A program made the position numbers and the translations under genes. A stretch of DNA of 64,000 bases from Candidatus Cloacimonadales bacterium (GTDB lineage: Bacteria; Cloacimonadota; Cloacimonadia; Cloacimonadales; JAFGVF01): positions 320,001-384,000 of the forward strand of contig CAXXJV010000002.1 of NCBI GenBank assembly GCA_963663475.2. The letters run 5' to 3'. The notes under the pieces are model-generated. The model made no database searches. It saw only the letters and a program-made list of their open reading frames with translations, and had not been told where the DNA came from. Positions 1 to 15,034 of the stretch are shown here, in pieces (the stretch's first letter is position 1; every line of letters begins with the position of its first letter).

Positions 1-15
1 TACAATATCACTAAA

Positions 16-543
16 ATGGTTAAAGTGGTTAAAACTGATCCTAAAGGGCTTATCTATGGAACTGTCTATGAAGCTGACACTAAGGATTCACAAGGTGACT
101 GGGCTGATATTGATACTATTAGAAAAGCTGCTCATGAATTTCTAATGAAAGGTAAAAATCTAAATGTTGATGAAGACCATAATGAAAAACCTTCAGGTGC
201 TGCTATTGTCGAATCTTATGTTGATGACAAAGCTTGGAAGGTAACTATTAAGGCCGACCCGGAAAGCGAAACCTTTAAAAAAGTTATGAAAGGTGATTAT
301 GAAGGACTTTCTCTCATGGGAGTTGCTAAGAAAGTTGAAGAAGAACCACCTGCTAAAGAAGATGCTTTAGCAAAATCTATGGAAGAAATTAAACAATTAA
401 AAGAACAGGTTGCTCAATTACAGAAAAGTATGGAAAGCCTACCTGGTACAAAGCAAATCGAATTCGATAAAGACGGTAATATCATAGCTAAAAAAAGCGA
501 TGATACCGAACTATTCTCTGAATTCAAAACCTTGGAGGTTTAA
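16..543 (+). CDS. XkdF-like prohead serine protease/scaffold (may begin upstream of window)
   Basis: Motifs YGTVYEADTKDSQGD, KAAHEF, VDEDH, IVESY, GDYEGLSLMG; frame is open back to base 1; directly precedes capsid-like gene. Confidence 0.8.
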   Translation: MVKVVKTDPKGLIYGTVYEADTKDSQGDWADIDTIRKAAHEFLMKGKNLNVDEDHNEKPSGAAIVESYVDDKAWKVTIKADPESETFKKVMKGDYEGLSLMGVAKKVEEEPPAKEDALAKSMEEIKQLKEQVAQLQKSMESLPGTKQIEFDKDGNIIAKKSDDTELFSEFKTLEV

Positions 544-545
544 GA

Positions 546-1379
546 ATGGCTAAACTTTTATCAAAAAAATCTGCTGACCGCTTCATTGAGATAATGGTAG
601 AAAACTCTCCAGTTCTCAAGAAGATTTCCTTCGCAACTCTCTCTATGCCTGTTTGTGAATATCCTCTTTTGGGAATTAGCAGATATAAGACTCGCGGGAT
701 TGCCCGTAACTCTGTCGCATCTCTCGTAAATCCTACTGATGTAACAATTTCTTTCAACTGTAAAGAAGTTGTTTTACCTTTAGTTATTCCTGATTCTTAT
801 GCTGAAGATATGAATACTTCACAAGAAAAAATAGCTAATTATGTTGCTCGCGTTTTTGGCCTGGATATGCAATACCTTTTCTTAGCAGGTGATACTGCTA
901 ATGAAGGAACTGCTGATAAAGACCTTCTTGCAAAAACTCTTGATGGTTTGGTTAAGCAAGTAACTGCCAGTGGAAACACTGTTGATTATCCTGCTGATGC
1001 TACACCTTTAGACAAGCTTAAGCTCTTAATCAAGGCACTTCCCGATAACGCTTTGGCTGATCCTAAACTGGAAATCTGGATGGGTTCCTCTGATTACACT
1101 GACCTCTGGGATTCCATTGCCAATAACTCTGCTGATAAAGCACTCTTGATGAAAGATAACAAAATCTATTATAGAACTAAAGAAGTTGTCGAAATTCCTG
1201 AACTCTCTAAGATTATTGTTCTCAATCCTGAGCATGTTGCAGCTGGTATTGTTAGAGATATGACTATCGAAACTCAGCGTTATCCTGAAGCTCGTGGTAA
1301 CAAAGTTGTTCTTTCTGCTCGTGTAGATATTCAACCTGTTACTGATCACATGGTTATTGAAGGTAGCCAATCAGCTTAA
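546..1379 (+). CDS. Major capsid protein (HK97-like, putative)
   Basis: Position after protease; GGAGG RBS; motifs FGLDMQYLFLAGD and GIVRDMTIETQR...LSARVD resemble XkdG-type capsids. Confidence 0.75.
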   Translation: MAKLLSKKSADRFIEIMVENSPVLKKISFATLSMPVCEYPLLGISRYKTRGIARNSVASLVNPTDVTISFNCKEVVLPLVIPDSYAEDMNTSQEKIANYVARVFGLDMQYLFLAGDTANEGTADKDLLAKTLDGLVKQVTASGNTVDYPADATPLDKLKLLIKALPDNALADPKLEIWMGSSDYTDLWDSIANNSADKALLMKDNKIYYRTKEVVEIPELSKIIVLNPEHVAAGIVRDMTIETQRYPEARGNKVVLSARVDIQPVTDHMVIEGSQSA

Positions 1380-1389
1380 GGAGTTGATT

Positions 1390-1587
1390 ATGCCTGTTTG
1401 TGAGCAACACGCACGACTTGAAGAAGATATTAAATATATCAAAAATAAACTTGATGGCAATGGTCGTCCAGGTGTCCTGGAACGGCTTAGCCGTCTGGAA
1501 ACGAAATTAACAATCATAATCTGGCTTAATGGTTTTATGGCTTCTGCTGTGATTGGAAGCATTATTAAGTCTATAATTGGAGGATAA
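1390..1587 (+). CDS. Small holin-like/XhlA-like membrane protein
   Basis: AAGGAG RBS before ATG 1390; coiled coil, GNGRPG motif, C-terminal TM helix; upstream of lysozyme. Confidence 0.6.
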   Translation: MPVCEQHARLEEDIKYIKNKLDGNGRPGVLERLSRLETKLTIIIWLNGFMASAVIGSIIKSIIGG

Positions 1588-1588
1588 T

Positions 1589-1999
1589 GTGGGCGAATTA
1601 TTTAATCATCCTGCTGTTGTATCTGCTATTAGTGTAATCTTTACACTTTTTATTATGGGGGCTTTCTGGATTATTAAAAAGCAAAAACTTAACTTTGACT
1701 TCTTACTTCCAACAGTCACCACTATTATTGAAGCTATCTTTGCTAATGCTAAGGCAACTAATCCTGCTTTAGCTGCAAGACAAGAAGTAGAGACGCGACT
1801 GTCTCAAGAGGAATTAGCTAGACTCTCTAAACGCTTAGCTACCAACGACCCCGTCCAAACTATATATAATACTATAACAAATCCGGCCAGAGAGTCCGGG
1901 GAAAAAGATGCTTCTTCCTGGATAAGACAAATTGCAAGTGGCTTAGGTGCTTCTGCTATCTCTGGACTCGCAAAAGGATTGGCAAAGAAGTTGTTTTAG
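1589..1999 (+). CDS. Phage membrane protein (possible holin)
   Basis: GGAGG at 1579-1583 before GTG 1589; N-terminal TM helix; adjacent to endolysin. Confidence 0.5.
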   Translation: MGELFNHPAVVSAISVIFTLFIMGAFWIIKKQKLNFDFLLPTVTTIIEAIFANAKATNPALAARQEVETRLSQEELARLSKRLATNDPVQTIYNTITNPARESGEKDASSWIRQIASGLGASAISGLAKGLAKKLF

Positions 2000-2007
2000 A
2001 GAAAATT

Positions 2008-2457
2008 ATGATGAGACACATTAAAATTCAATGTAAAGAAATCGCTCGTAAGATGCTGATGAAACACGAAGGTCTAAGACTTAAACCTTATTCTTGCTCA
2101 GCAGGAAAACTAACAATTGGTTTTGGGCGAAATTTGGAAGACAAGGGAATCACTGAAGTTGAAGCACATAATCTACTTGATAATGATATTGATTCTCTTG
2201 TCTCTCAACTGATTAAAACTTATCCCTGGTTTAGGGAACTCAATGATGTGAGAAAGGCTGTTGTTATTGATATGGCCTTTAACTTAGGACTAGCAGGCTT
2301 CTCTGCTTTTAAAAAGACTATTGCTTACCTTACTCAGCATGATTACTCTAATGCTTCTCGCGAAATGCTTAACAGCAAGTGGGCTATGCAAGTGGGTTAT
2401 CGTGCCAATGAGCTATCTAAGCTAATGGAGAATGGAGAATTGAGAAGTGAGAAATAA
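2008..2457 (+). CDS. Endolysin, T4-like lysozyme (GH24)
   Basis: HEGLRLKPYSCSAGKLTIGFGRNL, DMAFNLG, SKWAMQVGYRA motifs. Confidence 0.92.
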   Translation: MMRHIKIQCKEIARKMLMKHEGLRLKPYSCSAGKLTIGFGRNLEDKGITEVEAHNLLDNDIDSLVSQLIKTYPWFRELNDVRKAVVIDMAFNLGLAGFSAFKKTIAYLTQHDYSNASREMLNSKWAMQVGYRANELSKLMENGELRSEK

Positions 2458-2459
2458 CC

Positions 2460-2483
2460 GGGAACGCTGACATCTTGTCGGCA
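2460..2483 (+). repeat. REP-like hairpin GGGAACGCTGACATCTTGTCGGCA
   Basis: Identical 24-mer at 6128-6151; both follow a stop codon. Confidence 0.85.
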
Positions 2484-2504
2484 CACTAAATATAAGGAGA
2501 AAAT

Positions 2505-3026
2505 ATGTTAACTAAAATAACAACTCTTACTTATGACTTGCTAACATCAGTTAATTCTGTATTTAGCAAACAATGTAGAGTTTATGTAGCAAAAGGTTCA
2601 ATGGAAGAAGCTGATATACCTACAGACAAAGCATCACTTCAAGCACTCTATTCAGGTGTTGACGCTAAGTTTGTCTTTCTGGGTAACCTTTCTGAAAGTG
2701 GATCTAAAATTGGTTGGAAGCAAAACTCAATTGCAATTGACTTTGGTTCAATAAATACCAATACTGATATTACAGGAACACTAATTTCACTTATGTGCGA
2801 TAAAAATATGCTTGGTTTCATCGAAACTCAAGTAGGAGAACATTCATTTCTTTTTATACCTGATAAAGGTGATGATACTATTCTCTGTGCTCTTTCTGGA
2901 GTAACAATGTCTCATGAAGGTGAGATTCCTGTAGTAGGAAAGAATGAAACAGCCAAAATAACCTTAAATCTAACTGCAAACGTTAATAAGGTTACTGATG
3001 CTGTTAAATTTAGCAATCTAGCATAG
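2505..3026 (+). CDS. Putative tail tube/structural protein
   Basis: AAGGAG RBS; 173 aa, beta-rich pattern; position in virion module. Confidence 0.45.
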   Translation: MLTKITTLTYDLLTSVNSVFSKQCRVYVAKGSMEEADIPTDKASLQALYSGVDAKFVFLGNLSESGSKIGWKQNSIAIDFGSINTNTDITGTLISLMCDKNMLGFIETQVGEHSFLFIPDKGDDTILCALSGVTMSHEGEIPVVGKNETAKITLNLTANVNKVTDAVKFSNLA

Positions 3027-3036
3027 AGGTGAAATA

Positions 3037-3468
3037 ATGAAAATGATAAGAATAAAGACCGGTAGTGAACTCCATGAGTTTTACGGAACTATTGATGTTA
3101 CCCCTGAAATAAAGCATATGGTAGAAGAAGAATGTGTTTATAATACTGGTCTTTCTTATCGTTTTGGTAAGTATTTTGTTGATAAGATTCAGCTTAATCT
3201 GAGTATTTCAGCTGAGGACTACGAAAATCTCTACTATAAAGTTATGAACTTGAATGAGTGGATTATTGCCTGGGAAACCTTAAACGGCTACCAATGGAGA
3301 AAATCTCGTTCTCCTCTCCCATATCCCTCTAAAATTCGCTTTATTAACGATGCTGTTACCCTAAAAATTGAGTCTGAACCTTACACTATACCAATGCAAA
3401 ACATGACTAATATTACTATGAATACTATCTGGAATGAATCTACTCCGGATAATACTATATGGAACTAG
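3037..3468 (+). CDS. Phage hypothetical (tail-associated)
   Basis: GAGG RBS, operon context. Confidence 0.55.
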   Translation: MKMIRIKTGSELHEFYGTIDVTPEIKHMVEEECVYNTGLSYRFGKYFVDKIQLNLSISAEDYENLYYKVMNLNEWIIAWETLNGYQWRKSRSPLPYPSKIRFINDAVTLKIESEPYTIPMQNMTNITMNTIWNESTPDNTIWN

Positions 3469-3494
3469 GAGTGAGGAGTGAATAGAACACAATG

Positions 3495-3565
3495 ACACAG
3501 ATTAAACAGATTTACACAGATAAGAAAGATTTAATAATTTCGGTGTATTCGGTGTTTTCGGTGGC
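3495..3565. repeat. Short 9-mer tandem repeats (ACACAGATT-like x3; TTCGGTGT x3)
   Basis: Directly visible; the two tracts are roughly complementary. Confidence 0.7.
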
Positions 3566-3631
3566 TAATATTTTCTTATCTTAAGACTCTGTGTTAAGGA
3601 AATTTAAAAGAATATAAAAAAAGGAGAAAGT

Positions 3632-4459
3632 ATGATAAATTTACCCGGTCCTGATACTACAGATTGGGGCACTCTCTATAACAGTGCTATTAATCAACTC
3701 GAAACTATGATTAATGCCAAAACAACAGAAATTTCATCTCTACAAACTCTTGTTAGCCAACTTCAAGCAGCTTTAAGCGAAATAGAAATGGATACGCAAC
3801 ATATAGATCACAATGGTACACCACTTTCTGATGTTGTCCATAATTTGGAAGGATCTTTTAACAATCCAATAACCCCAGGAACTAAAACCAAAATAACTTA
3901 TGATGCTAAAGGTTTTGTGACAGGAGGTACTAACCTAACTGAAGGAGATATTCCTGCACTTTCAATATCTAAAATCATAGGGCTTGAGGATATAATTAAC
4001 ATGGTGTTAGTTGATATGGATAGAGTAGAAATATCTGCTTCTATTCGTAATACAAATGGTGGAATTAGAGTCTCATGTTTTACTAATCCTCCTGTACCAG
4101 TACAATCATGGTCTGTAATGTTGGAATGGAAAGGGTCAATTTTTTATGATGTCCGTTCTTCCTCAAGTGAAAGCTTTATCAATATGGGTAATTATCCAGA
4201 AATACCTGATGGCCAATTAGTTAATATTATGGTGGCAGCAATATCTGGAACCAGTATTAAAAAAAAGGACTATTCACATACTTATAATTATGTGGCAACT
4301 TCCATAGATTTAAGAGTAAAAGCTGTAGAACATGAACTCGCACCTCAAGCTCTCATGGACAGAATAGCTCAAGATGATAATATTCTGAATGAATTAGTTA
4401 ACAAGCTTCAACACTCTGGCACATTAGTACAGCGGCTTAGTGAGGTTCTTGCCCGATGA
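3632..4459 (+). CDS. Tail fibre-like protein
   Basis: Coiled coil plus the fibre-type motif GTKTKITYDAKGFVTGG...DIPALSISKIIGL. Confidence 0.65.
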   Translation: MINLPGPDTTDWGTLYNSAINQLETMINAKTTEISSLQTLVSQLQAALSEIEMDTQHIDHNGTPLSDVVHNLEGSFNNPITPGTKTKITYDAKGFVTGGTNLTEGDIPALSISKIIGLEDIINMVLVDMDRVEISASIRNTNGGIRVSCFTNPPVPVQSWSVMLEWKGSIFYDVRSSSSESFINMGNYPEIPDGQLVNIMVAAISGTSIKKKDYSHTYNYVATSIDLRVKAVEHELAPQALMDRIAQDDNILNELVNKLQHSGTLVQRLSEVLAR

Positions 4460-4701
4460 TAAAGACCTTAAGAGACCTCAATGTTTATGAGTGGATGCAA
4501 GGCAAAACTGTAGCCACTAAACGCATTGATATTAGCCTTGAATATAAAGCTCCTATCTACTCTCTTGTAGATAAAAAGGAAGAAATTAACATTTTCGATA
4601 AAAATATAATCACTGAATCTGATGACTTTCCTGCTACACCTGAACCAGGTCAAATTGTTAGAAAAAATGGAATAACATACATATATAGAGGAGAAGAATA
4701 A
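4456..4701 (+). CDS. Small phage protein
   Basis: ATGA overlap with upstream gene; C-terminus resembles that of 4901-5485. Confidence 0.55.
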   Translation: MIKTLRDLNVYEWMQGKTVATKRIDISLEYKAPIYSLVDKKEEINIFDKNIITESDDFPATPEPGQIVRKNGITYIYRGEE

Positions 4702-4901
4702 TGAATTTAACCGAATATCTCGAACAAAAAAGAAAAAGTTTAATAGCTACCAACAAGAACCTATCAGATGAAAAACTAAGAGTTGAAGGTGCTTGGTTAA
4801 TCTTACAAGAGATTGAAGAAATTGTAAGAGCCCCTAAATCCCCTAAAGGGGACTTTGAGGAAGAGAATCCCAAATCAAAAACAAAAAAGAGAGGTAAATA
4901 A
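4701..4901 (+). CDS. Small phage coiled-coil protein
   Basis: TAATG coupling at both ends. Confidence 0.55.
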   Translation: MNLTEYLEQKRKSLIATNKNLSDEKLRVEGAWLILQEIEEIVRAPKSPKGDFEEENPKSKTKKRGK

Positions 4902-5485
4902 TGGCTTGGAAGAAAATAGTAGATTCATCATTTACTATTAATGGTAAGGCACTAGACGGTCCAATTGATATAACAAAAGAAGATGTTGGACTTGGTAATG
5001 TAGATAACATTTCCAGAGAACAACTAATTGCTAGTCTAACAGCTGATGATATTCCTATAATTACTATCTCTAAAGTAACAGGTCTCCAAGGTGCCTTAGA
5101 TGCAAAGGTTCCTACTAGCAGGACTATTGCTGGTAAGTCCTTAACAGCTGATATATCTCTTGCTAAGGCTGATGTAGGACTGGCAAACGTAGAAAATAAA
5201 TCACCTGAAGAACTTTCATCACTTATCAGAAGTCAAATTGTGGCTGATGATGTACCACTGCTTGAAATAACAAAAATAAATGGATTAGCTGATTTCCATG
5301 TGGTTCTAGCCTCTGAAATTAGCTCTAAAGTGTCTAAAACCACTACCATTAATGGAAAAGCTTTAGATGCTAATATATCTCTTGGGGGACAAGACATCAT
5401 CAGACCAGAGTCTTCTCTCCCCGCATCTGGTTCCCCTGGTGAAATGATAAGATTCTCAGGTAATACTTATATTTGGAAGGCATAA
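4901..5485 (+). CDS. Tail fibre repeat protein
   Basis: Three TI(N/A)GKxL..DI repeats, DVGLGNVDN, ISKVTGLQGALDAKV. Confidence 0.7.
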   Translation: MAWKKIVDSSFTINGKALDGPIDITKEDVGLGNVDNISREQLIASLTADDIPIITISKVTGLQGALDAKVPTSRTIAGKSLTADISLAKADVGLANVENKSPEELSSLIRSQIVADDVPLLEITKINGLADFHVVLASEISSKVSKTTTINGKALDANISLGGQDIIRPESSLPASGSPGEMIRFSGNTYIWKA

Positions 5486-5486
5486 G

Positions 5487-6125
5487 ATGTGGGTGAAAGT
5501 AGCTGATAGAGAAGAAATAGCTAAGTTTGAGATTACGGCTGAAGCTAACAAAGTTACTAGTCTAATTGGTGAAACACCAGATAGTTTTATGGCCTCTGAA
5601 GATGATTTAGGCCTTATGCTTCTTTGCAAAGTTCCTCTTAAAATTTCCTCTTTGGATATCCAATTAGAAGATGATGCTGAAATTAACCTAGAATGTTGGC
5701 AATATGAGGGACAGAACTCTCATTTAATCTTTTCTAAATCAGGCTTTACTGGTATTCTAGGTCTTAATACTATTCCTTGTGATATTATGCTTAGTCCTGG
5801 TAAATACTTTCTAAGAGTGATTAGTAGAGGTATCTTGCTTAAAAATACTACAAAAATCTCTACAAGTCATCACTTCCTGTCAGTTGTTGGAGGCTCAAGT
5901 GTAACAAATGACCTTATTCCTGATTATAACGAACTTTTAAATCCTACTGTTTGGTTTGGTATTTATAATATCCAAATACAAGTAGCAAATAAATCCTTAT
6001 ATCTAGGTATAACTGATGATCTTCTAAATAATGATGATCTCATACTAGGAGCTTTTTATCACTGTATTAAAAGTGGCTCCTTAACTATGTATGTCTTTGA
6101 CGGTACTCAACAATATTCAAAATAA
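5487..6125 (+). CDS. Phage hypothetical (possible fibre tip/receptor-binding)
   Basis: Follows fibre-repeat gene by 1 nt; beta-rich pattern. Confidence 0.5.
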   Translation: MWVKVADREEIAKFEITAEANKVTSLIGETPDSFMASEDDLGLMLLCKVPLKISSLDIQLEDDAEINLECWQYEGQNSHLIFSKSGFTGILGLNTIPCDIMLSPGKYFLRVISRGILLKNTTKISTSHHFLSVVGGSSVTNDLIPDYNELLNPTVWFGIYNIQIQVANKSLYLGITDDLLNNDDLILGAFYHCIKSGSLTMYVFDGTQQYSK

Positions 6126-6195
6126 CTGGGAACGCTGACATCTTGTCGGCATCTTAAATAACTGGGAATGTGGGCATCCTTGCCCGCATCTTAAA
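6120..6195 (+). repeat. Two tandem REP-like hairpin units
   Basis: AAATAACTGGGAA-stem-CATC(C)TTG-stem-ATCTTAAA twice, with different stem sequences. Confidence 0.8.
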
Positions 6196-6204
6196 GGAGA
6201 AATA

Positions 6205-6546
6205 ATGCAATATAAAACTAATATCAAGACTCTTAAAAGAGTATATGCAATTGCCAAAGAAGTAGGATTGGAGAATATCTTAATGGGCTCCAATGAAAAC
6301 AAAGAAGTGAAATTTGACCTCAAAGTGCTTTTAGATGGTATCTTTGAAAAAGATTTAGTTAATGAATTCTGTCAAACCGTTACAGGAGAGACTAAGGACT
6401 TTGAAGAAAACTTAAAAATACCAGGACTGGAGAGTGTCATACTGGGTTTTTTCGATGCTATCAAAGAGGACTTGCAAGAATCAAGCATCTTAAAAGCAAT
6501 GATAGTAACGCAAGTCAAGAATCAGACAACCCCTTCTACGATATAA
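6205..6546 (+). CDS. Tail assembly chaperone (gpG-like); -1 frameshift form would end at 6626
   Basis: Upstream of tape measure; in-frame G GGT TTT TTC at 6444-6453; -1 frame open to TAA 6624-6626. Confidence 0.8.
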   Translation: MQYKTNIKTLKRVYAIAKEVGLENILMGSNENKEVKFDLKVLLDGIFEKDLVNEFCQTVTGETKDFEENLKIPGLESVILGFFDAIKEDLQESSILKAMIVTQVKNQTTPSTI

Positions 6547-6633
6547 GCTTTGTCTTATATCAAAATAATATTAACCCGGATAACTTAGAGATTGATGAAG
6601 CATTTCATTATTTGGAAAAGATTTAATTTACTT

Positions 6634-6657
6634 GTAGGGGCGTATTGCATACGCCCT
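6634..6657 (+). repeat. GTAG-type REP-like hairpin
   Basis: GTAG-GGGCGTAT-TGC-ATACGCCC-T, between two convergent stop codons. Confidence 0.7.
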
Positions 6658-6683
6658 TCCATTGGCGGTGTGGTTTCATTCCA

Positions 6684-6791
6684 TCACCTTAAATATTTAT
6701 CTATCGGATTACTTCCATCATCTGATAAGATAAACCAAATGATAAAAGCTATAGGTACTAAAAATACTAATATCGCGATTATAAGCCACAT
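6684..6791 (-). CDS. 35-aa single-TM peptide (moron-like), not in ORF track
   Basis: GAAAGGAG RBS 6 nt before ATG; MWLIIAILVFLVPIAFIIWFILSDDGSNPIDKYLR-TGA. Confidence 0.7.
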   Translation of the reverse strand: MWLIIAILVFLVPIAFIIWFILSDDGSNPIDKYLR

Positions 6792-6807
6792 GGGTAACTC
6801 CTTTCTT

Positions 6808-6866
6808 CTCTGTGTCCTCTGTGTCTCTGTGGTGAGTTCTTCATTCCTGACTCTTAACTCCTAACT
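6808..6866. repeat. Short tandem repeats (CTCTGTG x3; TCCTAAC-like x3)
   Basis: Directly visible. Confidence 0.65.
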
Positions 6867-6890
6867 AAATAATAACCAAGTAGGTATAAT

Positions 6891-9770
6891 ATGCAAGATT
6901 TAAAATTAATGATAAGATTTAACTTCGACGGTAAGAACGAATTAGAAAAGATTATCGATGAAGTTGCTAAGAAACATAACCTGGAAGTAAAGAGTAATCT
7001 GGGTCAAGTAAAGGTGGATGTAGATAGTATTGGTAAAGGTTTTACTAATATAACCAATAAAATAACTACTGCTGTTACTAAATTTGGTTTCTTTACTCAA
7101 GGTCTTTCTCAGGCAGGCGGTATATTAAGAATGCTGGCTGATGAAACTGTTAACTTAGGTAGAGAACAAATAAGATCTGATAAATTAGTTGAAGGTGCTG
7201 TTAAAGCTACTGGTGCGGCCGCTGGATTTACTACTGCTGAACTTAAACGCATGGCAAACCAACTTCAAGATGATACTAACTTCGGTGATGAAAAGCTTCT
7301 TGCTAAAGTTACCTCTGTTTTACTCACCTTTAAACAAGTTCAAGGTGATGTATTCCGGGAAGCTCAATCTCTTATCCTGGATATGTCAGAAGCTCTTGAC
7401 CAAGACCTCCAGCAAGCATCAATCCAAGTAGGTAAAGCCTTGCAAGACCCAATTCAAGGAGTTACTGCCCTTCGCCGTGTTGGTGTTCAACTATCTGAAC
7501 AACAAGAACAGCAAATTAAAGACTTCATGGCTGTCAATAAAGTAGCTAAAGCTCAAAAAATTATCCTACAAGAACTAAATTCTCAGTTTGGAGGACAAGC
7601 TAAGAATGTCGCAGACCCTTTTATTCAGCTCAAAAACACTTTTGGAGATATTAAAGAAATTATTGGTATTGCCTTACTTCCTGGTCTTAATGCTATTGCC
7701 TCCTCTACCAAAAATTGGCTTGAATCTCTTAAACCTGCTACTTCTGAACTAGAAAAAGTTACTGATGAATCCCAAAACCAACAAGCTGAATTCTTTAGCT
7801 TAACCTCTGCCTATGAAACACTTCGCTTTAAACAAGGCGAAACCCTTGAATCTAGCACTGCCCTTAAAGATATTATCGATACTCTTAATTCTAAATATGG
7901 TGATTACCTAGGTAATATTGACCTGGCCACTACTAAATACCAAGACTTTAAAACTGCTGTTAGTAATGCGACTCTTGAACTACAAAAAGAGGCAATGACT
8001 AAAGCCTTTCTTGCTAAAAGACAAGATATTACTGATAAAATAACTGATGTGTCTGCTGACCTTGTTAATGATATAATGAAGAAAAGAAAAAAATTAGAGA
8101 TTGCACAAAAACAACTCCAAAAAGCAATGGCAGAACAAAAAGTCGCAGAAACAAACTGGGAAGCAGACCAGGGTAATAATCCACAATTAGAAAGTGATCT
8201 AGAAGATGCAATATGGTGGACTGAACGAAAACAAAAACAATTAGAACAAGAACAAGAAGATTTTGACCAAGCTGTAGAAGATTTAAACAATAAAGCCAAA
8301 GCTAAACTAACCGGCTTAGAATTAGAACTTAGTTTATTCGATGACTCCTCAACTTCTTTATTAAAACAACTTCTCGGTGAAGAAGAAGATGATGATAAGG
8401 GCAAAGGTAAGGGTAAGGGAGGAAATACTGTTATTGCTAACCCAGATGAAATAGATAAACAACTACAAGCCCTTAAAGATAGCTTCAAAACCAAACAGCA
8501 ACTTCTTACTGATAACTACAATGCTCAAACAGAGCTTATCAATAAGAACGTCGCTGATGAAACAGAAAGGACTAACCTCTTAACAGCTTTAGATGAAAAA
8601 TATGCTAATGATTCCAAAGCTCTTAAACACCAGGAATTTCAAGAAGAGCTTGCTATTGCTGAGAATAAGAAACAACTGGGTATTCTTACCTACCAAGAAC
8701 TTAAAACTACTGTAGATGAATACTATAACTGGGTTAAAGCTAATTATGATAAAGATTCTAAAGAATATGTCCAAGCCCTTAATATGAAACATAATGCAGA
8801 CCTTCGTTATGGCCAAGAAACTAAAAAACTTAACGATAAGCTGCTTAAAGATACTAAAGATACCTGGCAAACTGCTCTGAAAATGTTTGACTTAGACTTA
8901 ATACCTTACCAACAGCTTCAAACTGCCTACCAGAACTATAAAAACATGCTTCAATCTACTTCTGAAGATGCTGATCTAACTGAAGACCAAATTAATAAGA
9001 TTACCATAGCTGTTAAAGAACTCGATAACCAAATGGAGAAAATATCTCAAAATCAGAACTGGCTCTCTAAATGGGTTAATAACACTAACGAAGCTTTTGA
9101 TGAAGTTAATGATCAGTCGTGGGGAGTTGCCGGCAATGTTGCCTCCTCCTGGGCTAATACCTTTACTAAAATACAAAAAGAAGGTATGGACTTTAAAAAA
9201 GATATGGAAGCCATCTGGAAAGGCTTAGCATATGCTGTTATAGAAGAGATAAACAGAATGATTGCCCGTTGGCTTGTGCTTATGGCTATTAAAGGGATTG
9301 GTAAGCTTTTTGGATTGGATTCAGTCTTCGGTATAGCAGTGAATAAAGCCGAAGGTGGTTATATCTCAGGACCAGGCGGACCAAAAGACGATGTTATCCC
9401 TGCCTGGCTATCTAACGGAGAGTTTGTAATCAATGCAGAAAAAACAGCCATTTTTAGACCTCTCTTAGAGTATCTTAACTATACTCCTATGGCTTCTCTT
9501 AAAACTAGCTTATCACTCCCTAAAGTTAATATGCCTGCTATTCCTAAAGTAGCTTACTCTTCAGGTGGATATGCTAATCACCCAGGATTTGACCTGTCTC
9601 GAATAGAAGAAAAATTAGATAAACTTGATAAATTAGAAAAAGTAATTAATGAACTGCAAGAACTTAAGAAAAAAGACTACACTGTCCAGGTTTCTACTAA
9701 ATTTAGAGGTGTAGAGTTCGCTAAAGAAGTAAATAAAGCCCAATCACAATACCAAAGGATTATGAGATGA
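6891..9770 (+). CDS. Tail tape measure protein
   Basis: 959 aa helical; DMSEAL..DLQQASIQVGKALQDPIQGVTALRRVGV and AEGGYISGPGGPKDDVIPAWLSNGEFVINA motifs. Confidence 0.93.
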   Translation: MQDLKLMIRFNFDGKNELEKIIDEVAKKHNLEVKSNLGQVKVDVDSIGKGFTNITNKITTAVTKFGFFTQGLSQAGGILRMLADETVNLGREQIRSDKLVEGAVKATGAAAGFTTAELKRMANQLQDDTNFGDEKLLAKVTSVLLTFKQVQGDVFREAQSLILDMSEALDQDLQQASIQVGKALQDPIQGVTALRRVGVQLSEQQEQQIKDFMAVNKVAKAQKIILQELNSQFGGQAKNVADPFIQLKNTFGDIKEIIGIALLPGLNAIASSTKNWLESLKPATSELEKVTDESQNQQAEFFSLTSAYETLRFKQGETLESSTALKDIIDTLNSKYGDYLGNIDLATTKYQDFKTAVSNATLELQKEAMTKAFLAKRQDITDKITDVSADLVNDIMKKRKKLEIAQKQLQKAMAEQKVAETNWEADQGNNPQLESDLEDAIWWTERKQKQLEQEQEDFDQAVEDLNNKAKAKLTGLELELSLFDDSSTSLLKQLLGEEEDDDKGKGKGKGGNTVIANPDEIDKQLQALKDSFKTKQQLLTDNYNAQTELINKNVADETERTNLLTALDEKYANDSKALKHQEFQEELAIAENKKQLGILTYQELKTTVDEYYNWVKANYDKDSKEYVQALNMKHNADLRYGQETKKLNDKLLKDTKDTWQTALKMFDLDLIPYQQLQTAYQNYKNMLQSTSEDADLTEDQINKITIAVKELDNQMEKISQNQNWLSKWVNNTNEAFDEVNDQSWGVAGNVASSWANTFTKIQKEGMDFKKDMEAIWKGLAYAVIEEINRMIARWLVLMAIKGIGKLFGLDSVFGIAVNKAEGGYISGPGGPKDDVIPAWLSNGEFVINAEKTAIFRPLLEYLNYTPMASLKTSLSLPKVNMPAIPKVAYSSGGYANHPGFDLSRIEEKLDKLDKLEKVINELQELKKKDYTVQVSTKFRGVEFAKEVNKAQSQYQRIMR

Positions 9771-10834
9771 GAATAGATTTTATAGATAATAATACCGTCG
9801 TTGCCTCTACTGATAAACTTATTGATATCGACTTATCTTACTACGATAATGTCCTGGTCTCTAAACCTGTTGCCCCTGAAGTAAGATTTACCATAGCTTA
9901 TAACCACCTCGATAACAACGACCCCTTTGTTACCTGGTGGAAAACTATCACTCAAGGCGAAATACCCGAAAATGTCTTTGCTGTTATCTACGACGGAAAT
10001 GGTTATGAAGTCGCTTCTGGAGACCTCTTTGAATACGATGAAGACCTACAAAACTTCGCTCTCGAAATCCTTATTGTGCCAGGGTTTACTCAAATTCTTG
10101 ATGAAGAGAAGAATAAATCTGGAGAAATTGTTAAGCCTATTACTCATGATGCATCTCTTAACTATATAACTGGCTTACTCAGAGAAGTATTTCTTAATAT
10201 GTGGAACAAATTGAATATTCCTTATTCTTGCATTTTAAATGATCCTACTCCAAACGGTGTCATCTGGATGGATTTTATTGATGTTGCTAACATTATTCAC
10301 TACTTTTGCCAATCCAGGCTATTATCTGGTAACGCGTACTTCCTGCGGATTAATTATGTATTAAATGGGACAAAAGCTAATTCTATCAATAGTTTGGGCT
10401 TCAGCAATCTCCTAAAATTATTTTATTCTAGAAAATCAAACTCTTTCTCTTCATGGAATCCTCAGCAAACTAAACAAGTTCAAGGTTTTGTTACTGGTAC
10501 TTCATATAATGAACTTGATACAGATGATTTCTCTCCTTTATATAGACTTCGTGTATATGATTATGGTGGTGATGATGAAATAGGTGATTTAGACTCTCTA
10601 TACAAAGCTAAGATACAACAAAAAGTTAATTCCTTAAAAGTAAGAAAAAATTATCATATCCAAGGAAATGTAGCTTTTACATGGCTTTACCCGGGAGACT
10701 CAATAAGCCTTAATGGACAAACTTATATCATCAAAGAAATTAATTACGATCCTGTATCATTAAATACTATATCTCACATGGGTTCAAATTTAAACCTAAA
10801 ATTCTTCAATGCTGTATGTGTCAAAGGTAGTTAA
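9767..10834 (+). CDS. Putative tail tip/hub protein
   Basis: ATGA overlap with tape measure; C-terminal LYPGDSISLNGQTYIIKEINY resembles tail-tip proteins. Confidence 0.55.
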   Translation: MRIDFIDNNTVVASTDKLIDIDLSYYDNVLVSKPVAPEVRFTIAYNHLDNNDPFVTWWKTITQGEIPENVFAVIYDGNGYEVASGDLFEYDEDLQNFALEILIVPGFTQILDEEKNKSGEIVKPITHDASLNYITGLLREVFLNMWNKLNIPYSCILNDPTPNGVIWMDFIDVANIIHYFCQSRLLSGNAYFLRINYVLNGTKANSINSLGFSNLLKLFYSRKSNSFSSWNPQQTKQVQGFVTGTSYNELDTDDFSPLYRLRVYDYGGDDEIGDLDSLYKAKIQQKVNSLKVRKNYHIQGNVAFTWLYPGDSISLNGQTYIIKEINYDPVSLNTISHMGSNLNLKFFNAVCVKGS

Positions 10835-10977
10835 ACTGCAAAATAATTTCTAAATCTTAGAACTAAACTGCAAAATAATTTCTCATTAAGTGATTTACCA
10901 CTGCAAAATAATTTCTAAATCTTAGAACTAAACTGCAAAATAATTTCTCATTCACTGCAATTTAATTTCAAAGTGCA
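10835..10977 (-). repeat. Five copies of ACTGCAAAATAATTTC plus 8-bp terminus; candidate transposon-type right end
   Basis: Copies start at 10835, 10867, 10900, 10932, 10954 (last has 2 mismatches); bottom strand starts TGCACTTT at 10977. Confidence 0.8.
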
Positions 10978-11085
10978 TAAAAACCAATGATAGATAATAT
11001 TATTATTAGATTATTTTATTGACTACTATATAAAAAATAAAATATTGTCTTAGATAAAGTATAAAATGATTTTCATGGAGGAAAT

Positions 11086-14958: not shown

Positions 14959-15034
14959 GGGGCATTAGCTCAGCTGGGAGAGCGCTACACTGGCAGTGTA
15001 GAGGTCAGCGGTTCGATCCCGCTATGCTCCACCA
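14959..15034 (+). tRNA. tRNA-Ala(GGC)
   Basis: GGGGCAT acceptor with G3:U70, anticodon loop CTGGCAG, GTTCGA T-loop, encoded CCA; TTGACA at 14919-14924. Confidence 0.97.

Follow-up and report, generated by a model that had tools for sequence, protein, structure and literature searches.

The window analysed here, 64,000 nucleotides of a Candidatus Cloacimonadales genome (positions 320001-384000 of contig C2), opens inside a prophage and holds its right 10,979 bp (window 1..10979, + strand). The whole prophage, copy A of three in this genome, occupies C2:304099-330979 and measures 26,881 bp, of which the left 15,902 bp fall before the start of the window and were taken from the locus that holds that sequence (L001:2099-18000). 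The termini were placed by script, by alignment of the three copies and by reading of the flanks. The last open reading frame (ORF) of the prophage, of 355 amino acids (aa; window 9767-10834), closes with the stop codon TAA at 10832-10834, and from 10835 there follow five direct 16-bp repeats, as the sequence-only reading of this DNA had described. The array very probably marks the right end (attR) of a temperate transposable phage of this bacterium, of Mu-like type, where it would supply the sites bound by the transposase.

The five repeats, found by a repeat search and tested against shuffles, span window positions 10835-10969, successive copies starting 32, 33, 32 and 22 bp apart. Exact copies of ACTGCAAAATAATTTC start at 10835, 10867, 10900 and 10932, and the outermost, at 10954-10969, is the variant ACTGCAATTTAATTTC, which differs from ACTGCAAAATAATTTC at two positions. 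Counted inwards from the terminus, these presumed transposase-binding sites are R1 (10954..10969), R2 (10932..10947), R3 (10900..10915), R4 (10867..10882) and R5 (10835..10850), all on the + strand. The first two copies by position and the following two form a 65-bp tandem duplication with 97% identity. The exact motif, with four occurrences in the window, averaged 0.00 in 100 shuffles that preserved dinucleotide frequencies, which excludes chance. When up to three mismatches are allowed, a count of five is not unusual, being reached by 12 of the 100 shuffles, so the signal lies in the exactness and clustering of the repeats. Directly after the outermost copy comes AAAGTGCA, again as previously noted, and the element continues for two more bases, to a TA at 10978-10979.

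The inverted array anticipated at the other end is present: 15.9 kb upstream of the window, the left end of copy A carries four inverted copies of the repeat (GAAATTAWWTTGCAGT). A terminal inverted repeat, perfect over 53 bp by blastn of the copies and by direct read-out, occupies 10927..10979 at the right end, where it is 100% identical to the reverse complement of the first 53 bp of the element and ends ...GTGCATA. The element thus reads 5'-TATGCACTTTGAAATT...AATTTCAAAGTGCATA-3', its right end being the exact reverse complement of its left start. The outer 118 bp on the left hold four sites and the outer 145 bp on the right hold five, all pointing inward in the same sense. The two outermost are equal in sequence and position at both ends (11-26 and 33-48 from either terminus, so that R1 lies 11 bp from the terminus, as does L1 on the left), and the further sites are found at 71-86 and 103-118 on the left and at 65-80, 98-113 and 130-145 on the right. 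A genome-wide motif scan recovered the five-copy array three times in one orientation and the reverse-complement four-copy array three times.

The motif scan also located a solitary end-type site, in right-end orientation, 11.66 kb from the left end (L001:13759-13774, C2:315759-315774). It has equivalents at C1:1376065 in copy B and at C1:8198 = C2:2420 in copy C, so that each copy has one, directly following a terminator-like hairpin and its run of Ts (recognised by eye at about L001:13700-13740), where gene orientation flips. It was dropped as a candidate conserved feature, the first 10 kb of a relative on another contig (L004, described below) having no counterpart.

Another end-proximal role for the repeats, as repressor operators, a pac site or partition sites, with the transposase recognising only the terminal bases, is highly improbable. 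The solitary copy lies far from the ends, so that the motif is not strictly terminal, and the assignment of the 16-mers to transposase binding draws on their position and on analogy. Against such a role, the motif is inverted at the two ends, with sites 1 and 2 at identical positions followed by steps of 32-38 bp; elements of the MuA/TnsB family have multi-site ends laid out in this way, and their end complexes are the best structural matches of the transposase (see below); and the intergenic region between the repressor and helix-turn-helix (HTH) genes, where operators are expected (around L001:2717-2750), lies further in than the arrays.

Insertion sites and copies of the element

Copy B lies on a second contig (C1:1362917-1391188, 28,272 bp), and copy C, of about 26.8 kb, is split over the starts of C2 (1-14149) and C1 (1-23265). 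The two pieces of copy C share an overlap of 10.6 kb, in which a single 26-bp indel is the only difference (0 mismatches), and carry the matching pentamer TAATG, from which it follows that contigs C1 and C2 are joined in the real genome and that the assembly broke inside the prophage. All six ends share one terminal 53-bp sequence. Compared by segment, the copies form mosaics with 90-100% identity; between them, the 5' region of the transposase gene and the regulatory switch either cannot be aligned or agree at only about 90%. The repressor gene is a different one in each copy (163, 152 and 152 aa), the N-terminal sequences being unrelated, and the copies therefore appear to be heteroimmune relatives, each of which arrived separately. 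In copy B the transposase gene is split into 318-aa and 367-aa pieces by a 1.45-kb insertion sequence (IS) of the IS3 family (C1:~1364721-1366172; L023:~2440-3890), which contains a 140-aa HTH_Tnp_1 ORF and a 261-aa rve ORF.

Each copy is flanked by a 5-bp direct duplication that abuts the TA termini: AAAAC for copy A (left copy C2:304094-304098, right copy window 10980..10984), ATTAA for copy B and TAATG for copy C. The chance of three such matches is about 5e-9 at the base composition of the genome. The site of copy A is empty in all six same-genus genomes compared, with the flanks 37-787 bp apart. The intergenic spacer is 77-83% identical in these sister species, too diverged for a base-for-base alignment, so the exact target pentamer could not be read from them; the question was settled by assembled Logan contigs of public metagenome runs. 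Exactly empty sites with a single AAAAC were found in contigs of runs X3 (microbial mat), X1 and X7 (wastewater), in which the right flank, from window 10979 on, is joined directly to the final 30 bases of the left flank of copy A; the X3 contig shows six differences over about 1 kb. The TA is missing from the empty site and hence belongs to the element. The TG...CA that the sequence-only reading had taken for the termini sits two bases inside the true ends, the element finishing at 10979 rather than 10977, and the TAAAA duplication it had proposed (10978-10982) is replaced by AAAAC at 10980-10984. Three independent insertions with 5-bp duplications, together with a precise empty site, are thus on record.

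In run X1, another contig passes from the phage end (10923-10979) into unrelated DNA, which defines a different, fourth insertion site. Presence and absence at one site among near-identical strains, together with this other site, indicate recent mobility. In run X20, which resembles the source, the loose phage ends correspond to the known flanks of copies A and B. Contig depths in X1 (phage ~373-431, empty-site contig 49.5, contig joining the phage end to the other flank 60.7) sum over organisms and are not copy numbers, and were not counted as evidence for many copies or free phage.

A Pfam scan of 38 ORFs gave no match to an integrase, resolvase or recombinase family, and no tRNA gene was located within 4 kb of either end. 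A tRNA-Ala (GGC) gene (window 14959-15034, +), some 4 kb beyond the prophage end on its downstream side, has no connection with the insertion.

The variable occupancy of these sites bears on whether the copies are defective or domesticated remnants, either a cryptic prophage or a producer akin to a gene-transfer agent, which moved in the past and are inactive today. This is improbable. The interrupted transposase gene of copy B, the small genome and a tail gene set that looks sparse would fit with it, as would the lack of free-phage or induction evidence in the contigs of the public runs. Set against this, the transposase genes are intact in copy A (681 aa) and copy C (678 aa), the six terminal 53-bp sequences are identical, occupancy differs among near-identical strains with another site used in X1, which speaks for recent mobility, and gene order is kept in relatives whose transposases are only 46-48% identical, which points to selection on the whole phage.

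Transposase, phage genes and relatives

The transposase gene (L001:2949-4994, +) encodes a protein of 681 aa. Its Pfam matches are limited to HTH_17 and HTH_32, the rve, DDE_2 and Mu-transpos_C models not being reached, and phmmer against PDB sequences returned nothing. Taken alone, these searches suggested the absence of a DDE enzyme, a conclusion overturned by profile and fold methods. Among PHROGs the protein matches phrog_310, 'transposase' (E 3.6e-37). Of 132 profile-search hits, the 37 long distant relatives chosen for scanning matched rve in 33 cases, Mu-transpos_C in 32 and DDE_2 in 14, and hhalign aligned the transposase family with these relatives at a probability of 100% (E 1.2e-58, 495 columns), with the catalytic columns in register. 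An AlphaFold model built from a 50-sequence alignment has a mean predicted local distance difference test (pLDDT) score of 77; averaged in blocks of 10 residues, the score is 81-97 across residues 281-560. Foldseek gave as the best PDB matches of the model TnsB strand-transfer complexes (that of ShCAST, 7svw, at E 7e-20, with 8rdu and 8aa5), Tn7 TnsB (9bw1), the Mu transpososome (4fcy, E 8.5e-15) and IstA. By family profile and modelled fold, the protein is shown to be a divergent MuA/TnsB-family DDE transposase, the enzyme that had been predicted near the left end. It comprises an N-terminal HTH, an RNase H-like core and a beta-barrel region similar to Mu-transpos_C. The candidate catalytic residues D292, E363 and E398 are aligned, and D365 is also invariant; E363 and D365 are both candidates for the second carboxylate.

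The linker that follows the N-terminal HTH (residues ~55-111, L001:~3100-3290) contains an 11-aa unit, QMDTSKKSDGH, repeated in tandem about four times; it is disordered in the model (pLDDT about 32), and at this position each homologue has its own, different short repeat. A 90-aa ORF at L001:7531-7803 (+), carried by copies A and B, duplicates part of the transposase core (58% identity over 38 aa, residues 360-397, E 1e-13); the match breaks off immediately ahead of the catalytic E398. The ORF may be a relic or may have a regulatory role.

At the left end, a CI/XRE repressor gene (L001:2226-2717, -; HTH_19, HTH_3 and Phage_CI_repr) diverges from a gene for an HTH protein in the Ner/Cro position (L001:2684-2965, +; HTH_3). 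A promoter scan of this switch region gave no more matches than shuffles. Beyond the transposase, the Pfam and PHROGs scans assigned no function to the small ORFs at L001:5186-9093; they are followed by genes for a DUF3164 protein (L001:9150-9761, E 7.5e-49), a 224-aa Phg_2220_C protein (L001:10679-11353) and a MuF-domain head protein (L001:11534-13018, by Pfam), and by a 181-aa ORF without a family match (L001:13029-13574). After the hairpin and the solitary site come, all on the - strand, genes for a neck protein (L001:13831-14328, phrog_5), two small ORFs (L001:14511-15250), a PF04860 portal (L001:15250-16305) and the large terminase (L001:16338-17606), the latter two identified by Pfam. 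This terminase-portal-neck block runs opposite to the capsid-tail block that occupies the window on the + strand. The capsid-tail block begins with a 175-aa prohead protease of the XkdF type (window 16..543, Peptidase_S78_2, E 1.7e-20) and a 277-aa candidate major capsid or virion structural protein (window 546..1379; phrog_1623, head and packaging, E 5.4e-32; no Pfam match). A 149-aa endolysin (window 2008..2457, Phage_lysozyme, E 5.3e-14) follows, and between it and the tape measure gene the Pfam and PHROGs scans indicate fibre-like proteins. The 959-aa tape measure protein (window 6891..9770) matches TMP_2 at E 2.1e-6, just below the curated cut-off, with a size and position that fit. The 355-aa product of the last ORF (window 9767..10834) is presumed to be a distal tail protein, with a weak Prophage_tailD1 hint (E 0.0054) and no PHROG match. 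The earlier expectation of non-Mu virion genes is borne out by the protease, portal and capsid, though a MuF-domain protein is present.

The transposase family is rare. It comprises 10 proteins among candidates scored from 5.8 billion, one of them being that of copy C itself, and eight representatives at E<1e-30 among 1.84 billion proteins. Within the phylum it occurs in 2 of 232 genomes, both of one genus, and 50,697 deposited phage genomes gave two weak matches with 23-24% identity. Two other contigs from metagenome-assembled genomes (MAGs), L003 and L004, show the same end architecture, beginning TAT, in different flanking DNA. L003 is contig 113 of a Candidatus Cloacimonadales MAG of the same genus as the window genome. 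L004 (JAVEPM010000094.1) is binned as Methanolobus and carries the phage left end with repressor, transposase (79% identity), DUF3164 and MuF genes; its assignment is most likely a binning error and not a sign of an archaeal host. The transposases of two more distant relatives, L005 and L006 (G+C content 42-46%), are 46-48% identical, and their genes are arranged in the order transposase, ~140-aa protein, DUF3164, MuF-like protein and an inverted neck-portal(-terminase) block. A literature search on transposable phages and Cloacimonadota returned one unrelated paper and no described transposable phage for the phylum.

The early region bears on how the phage replicates. In the proposed mechanism, the transposase, encoded just inside the left end behind the divergent repressor/Ner-like switch, would bind the 16-bp sites and pair both ends, nick at the terminal A-3' and transfer the 3' ends to target phosphates that are offset by 5 bp, and repair would yield the 5-bp duplication; lytic replication would then proceed by replicative transposition with headful packaging. 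Use of the DDE transposase for conservative integration only, with replication achieved otherwise, for instance as an episome with the DnaD-like Phg_2220_C protein, and hence not in the manner of Mu, is rather unlikely. The 224-aa protein (Phg_2220_C, E 1.2e-26) does match phrog_428, 'replication initiation protein', at E 2.2e-33; the element lacks MuB, reported as the source of the high transposition efficiency of Mu (PMC7350765); and the three copies, as mosaics with different repressors, look like separate infections and show no replicative burst. On the other hand, L005 and L006 have no Phg_2220_C gene in their early regions, where the MuF-like gene follows DUF3164 directly or after a single 134-aa ORF, so the Phg_2220_C gene is not a core gene of the family. 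The Pfam and PHROGs scans found no helicase, primase or polymerase in the element, and the layout of the early region, with DUF3164, is that of Mu-like phages.

Absence of a partner ATPase

The sequence-only reading had also predicted a MuB or TnsC gene, which is absent. The Walker A motif [AG]xxxxGK[ST] occurs in no frame of more than 30 codons across the 26.9 kb, AAA/ATPase families have no match in Pfam or PHROGs among the ORFs scanned, and an ESM Atlas search with the 236-aa and 213-aa early proteins, the two largest without assignment, gave nothing ATPase-like (the 236-aa protein offers a weak lead to DUF3102, score 0.91). A hidden partner ATPase was rejected on the Walker A scan, a permissive Pfam search and the ESM Atlas results. 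The relatives L003-L006 and L020 likewise contain no Walker A ORF, and since this extends to the distant L005 and L006, the absence of a MuB/TnpB/TnsC partner is, as judged from sequence, a trait of the family.

The missing ATPase is one of several points that weigh against a Mu-like transposable phage. TnpA and its ATPase TnpB are given as the signature proteins of transposable phages (PMC8705779), Mu-like phages are defined by the adjacent MuA-MuB pair in a 2026 preprint (10.64898/2026.05.11.724261), and Mu without MuB is reported still to transpose in vivo, about 100-fold less (PMC7350765). Further points come from the transposase, for which hhalign aligns E363 and no aspartate at the second carboxylate, and from the 16-mers, whose binding by the transposase is argued from position and analogy. 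Copy B is broken by its IS3-family insertion, and the depth of the X20 contigs (phage 262, flank 81) can be put down to three collapsed copies and is no sign of present activity. A single ORF follows the tape measure gene, so that a complete tail is not demonstrated. The name 'Saltoviridae' was reportedly given to Mu-like and B3-like transposable phages by Hulo et al. 2015. GemA, Mor/C and the DUF935 portal are described as conserved proteins of this group (PMC7761591). The element gives no match to Mor/C or to the Mu-type DUF935 portal, where divergence could hide Mor, and for GemA the only match is that of the L006 homologue of a 143-aa protein, at E 0.0027, below the cut-off; GemA was therefore not established, and divergence could hide it too. 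At 26.9 kb, the genome is smaller than those of described transposable phages (32-39 kb; PMC7761591, PMC8705779).

Even so, a phage that moves by DDE transposition, with the array as its right end, is supported as the central claim of the sequence-only reading, and most of the checks that it proposed spoke for it. None of the findings named there as contradicting it was made, these being a left end without an inverted array or DDE transposase, an integrase with direct attachment repeats, and the array in prophage-free relatives. The transposase would work without an AAA+ target-capture partner because none is encoded. The literature searched describes no transposable phage without a B-type ATPase, with the limit that supplementary tables outside the search could list one. 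We tentatively suggest, as a possibility that falls a little short of an even case, that the element belongs to the first recognised lineage of transposable phages without any MuB/TnpB/TnsC-type ATPase, a minimal, self-sufficient 'MuA-only' phage of 27 kb. Its transposase may have a D-E-E instead of a D-D-E active site, may cleave at TA ends and may capture targets unaided or through a non-ATPase or host factor. Three heteroimmune relatives in one chromosome would fit with a lack of MuB-dependent target immunity.

Transposable phages are now found and defined by the MuA-MuB pair and Mu-type head genes, and the present family has neither the ATPase nor the Mu portal. Lacking both, and with a transposase invisible to Pfam, such phages go undetected in the usual searches, and the current picture of the range of transposable phages is probably too narrow. 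If the suggestion is true, a MuA/TnsB enzyme without an AAA+ partner would offer a simple system in which to study whether the ATPase is needed for target capture, immunity or transpososome activation. Defined ends of 150 bp, a single transposase gene and varied insertion sites would also be a starting point for a mutagenesis tool in Cloacimonadota, for which no established genetic tools are known, no search having been aimed at them.

Comparison with known transposable elements

Like Mu and the Mu-like and B3-like phages, the element is a temperate phage that has multiple spaced sites near its inverted ends, duplicates a few bases of its target and inserts at many places. It also has in common with them an early operon of repressor, Ner-like protein and transposase at the left end, a MuA-family DDE transposase, a DUF3164 protein and a MuF-domain head protein. 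DUF3164 is reported beside the transposase and ATPase genes of transposable prophages (PMC7761591) and as frequent in Mu-like elements (PMC5488378), and the target duplications of Mu and B3 are given as 5 and 6 bp, respectively (PMC8705779). The element departs from these phages in having no MuB/TnpB ATPase, in its TA...TA instead of TG...CA termini, in its size (26.9 kb compared with about 32-39 kb), in the absence of a Mor/C match and in a GemA that is not demonstrable. It further differs in its PF04860 rather than DUF935 portal, its XkdF-type protease, a terminase-portal-neck block that is reversed with respect to the capsid-tail block, and a transposase too diverged for the Pfam rve, DDE_2 and Mu-transpos_C models.

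The 'TA-TA' prophages of Leptospira (WETA1 group) share the TA at both termini in place of TG-CA, and are predicted to be transposable from their multiple copies and a short duplication that is single in empty-site strains (PMC8705779). They are described as having 38-40 kb, a 6-bp duplication, a B3/Tn552-related transposase and a TnpB ATPase (PMC8705779), whereas the present element has 27 kb, a 5-bp duplication and no ATPase. Closer in size is the Flavobacterium columnare phage fF4 which, with fF4-like prophages of Bacteroidetes, resembles the element in being small (32 kb) and transposable-like, in belonging to a non-proteobacterial phylum, in carrying DUF3164 near the transposase, in having poorly conserved genes and in being missed by standard prophage finders (PMC7761591). 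The myovirus fF4 is reported to encode a MuB-orthologue ATPase, a DUF935 portal and orthologues of Mu H, F, G and gp36 (PMC7761591); the present element has neither the ATPase nor the Mu-type portal.

Integrase-type prophages differ from the element, whose flanking repeats are of 5 bp and different for each copy, and which has no integrase and no tRNA at its ends. Tn7 and CRISPR-associated Tn7-like elements share with it the TnsB-type fold and asymmetric ends with unequal numbers of sites. The target duplication of Tn7 is 5 bp, as in the present element. Unlike these transposons, the element has no TnsA, TnsC or TnsD/TniQ homologues in the ORFs scanned and no fixed attachment site, and its cargo consists of phage genes. 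What is new is the combination of a missing partner ATPase, a 27-kb genome, a non-Mu portal, protease and capsid, a transposase that the models do not see and the host phylum. The element is thus a compact, MuB-less form of transposable phage in Cloacimonadales, Mu-like in its mechanism and layout.

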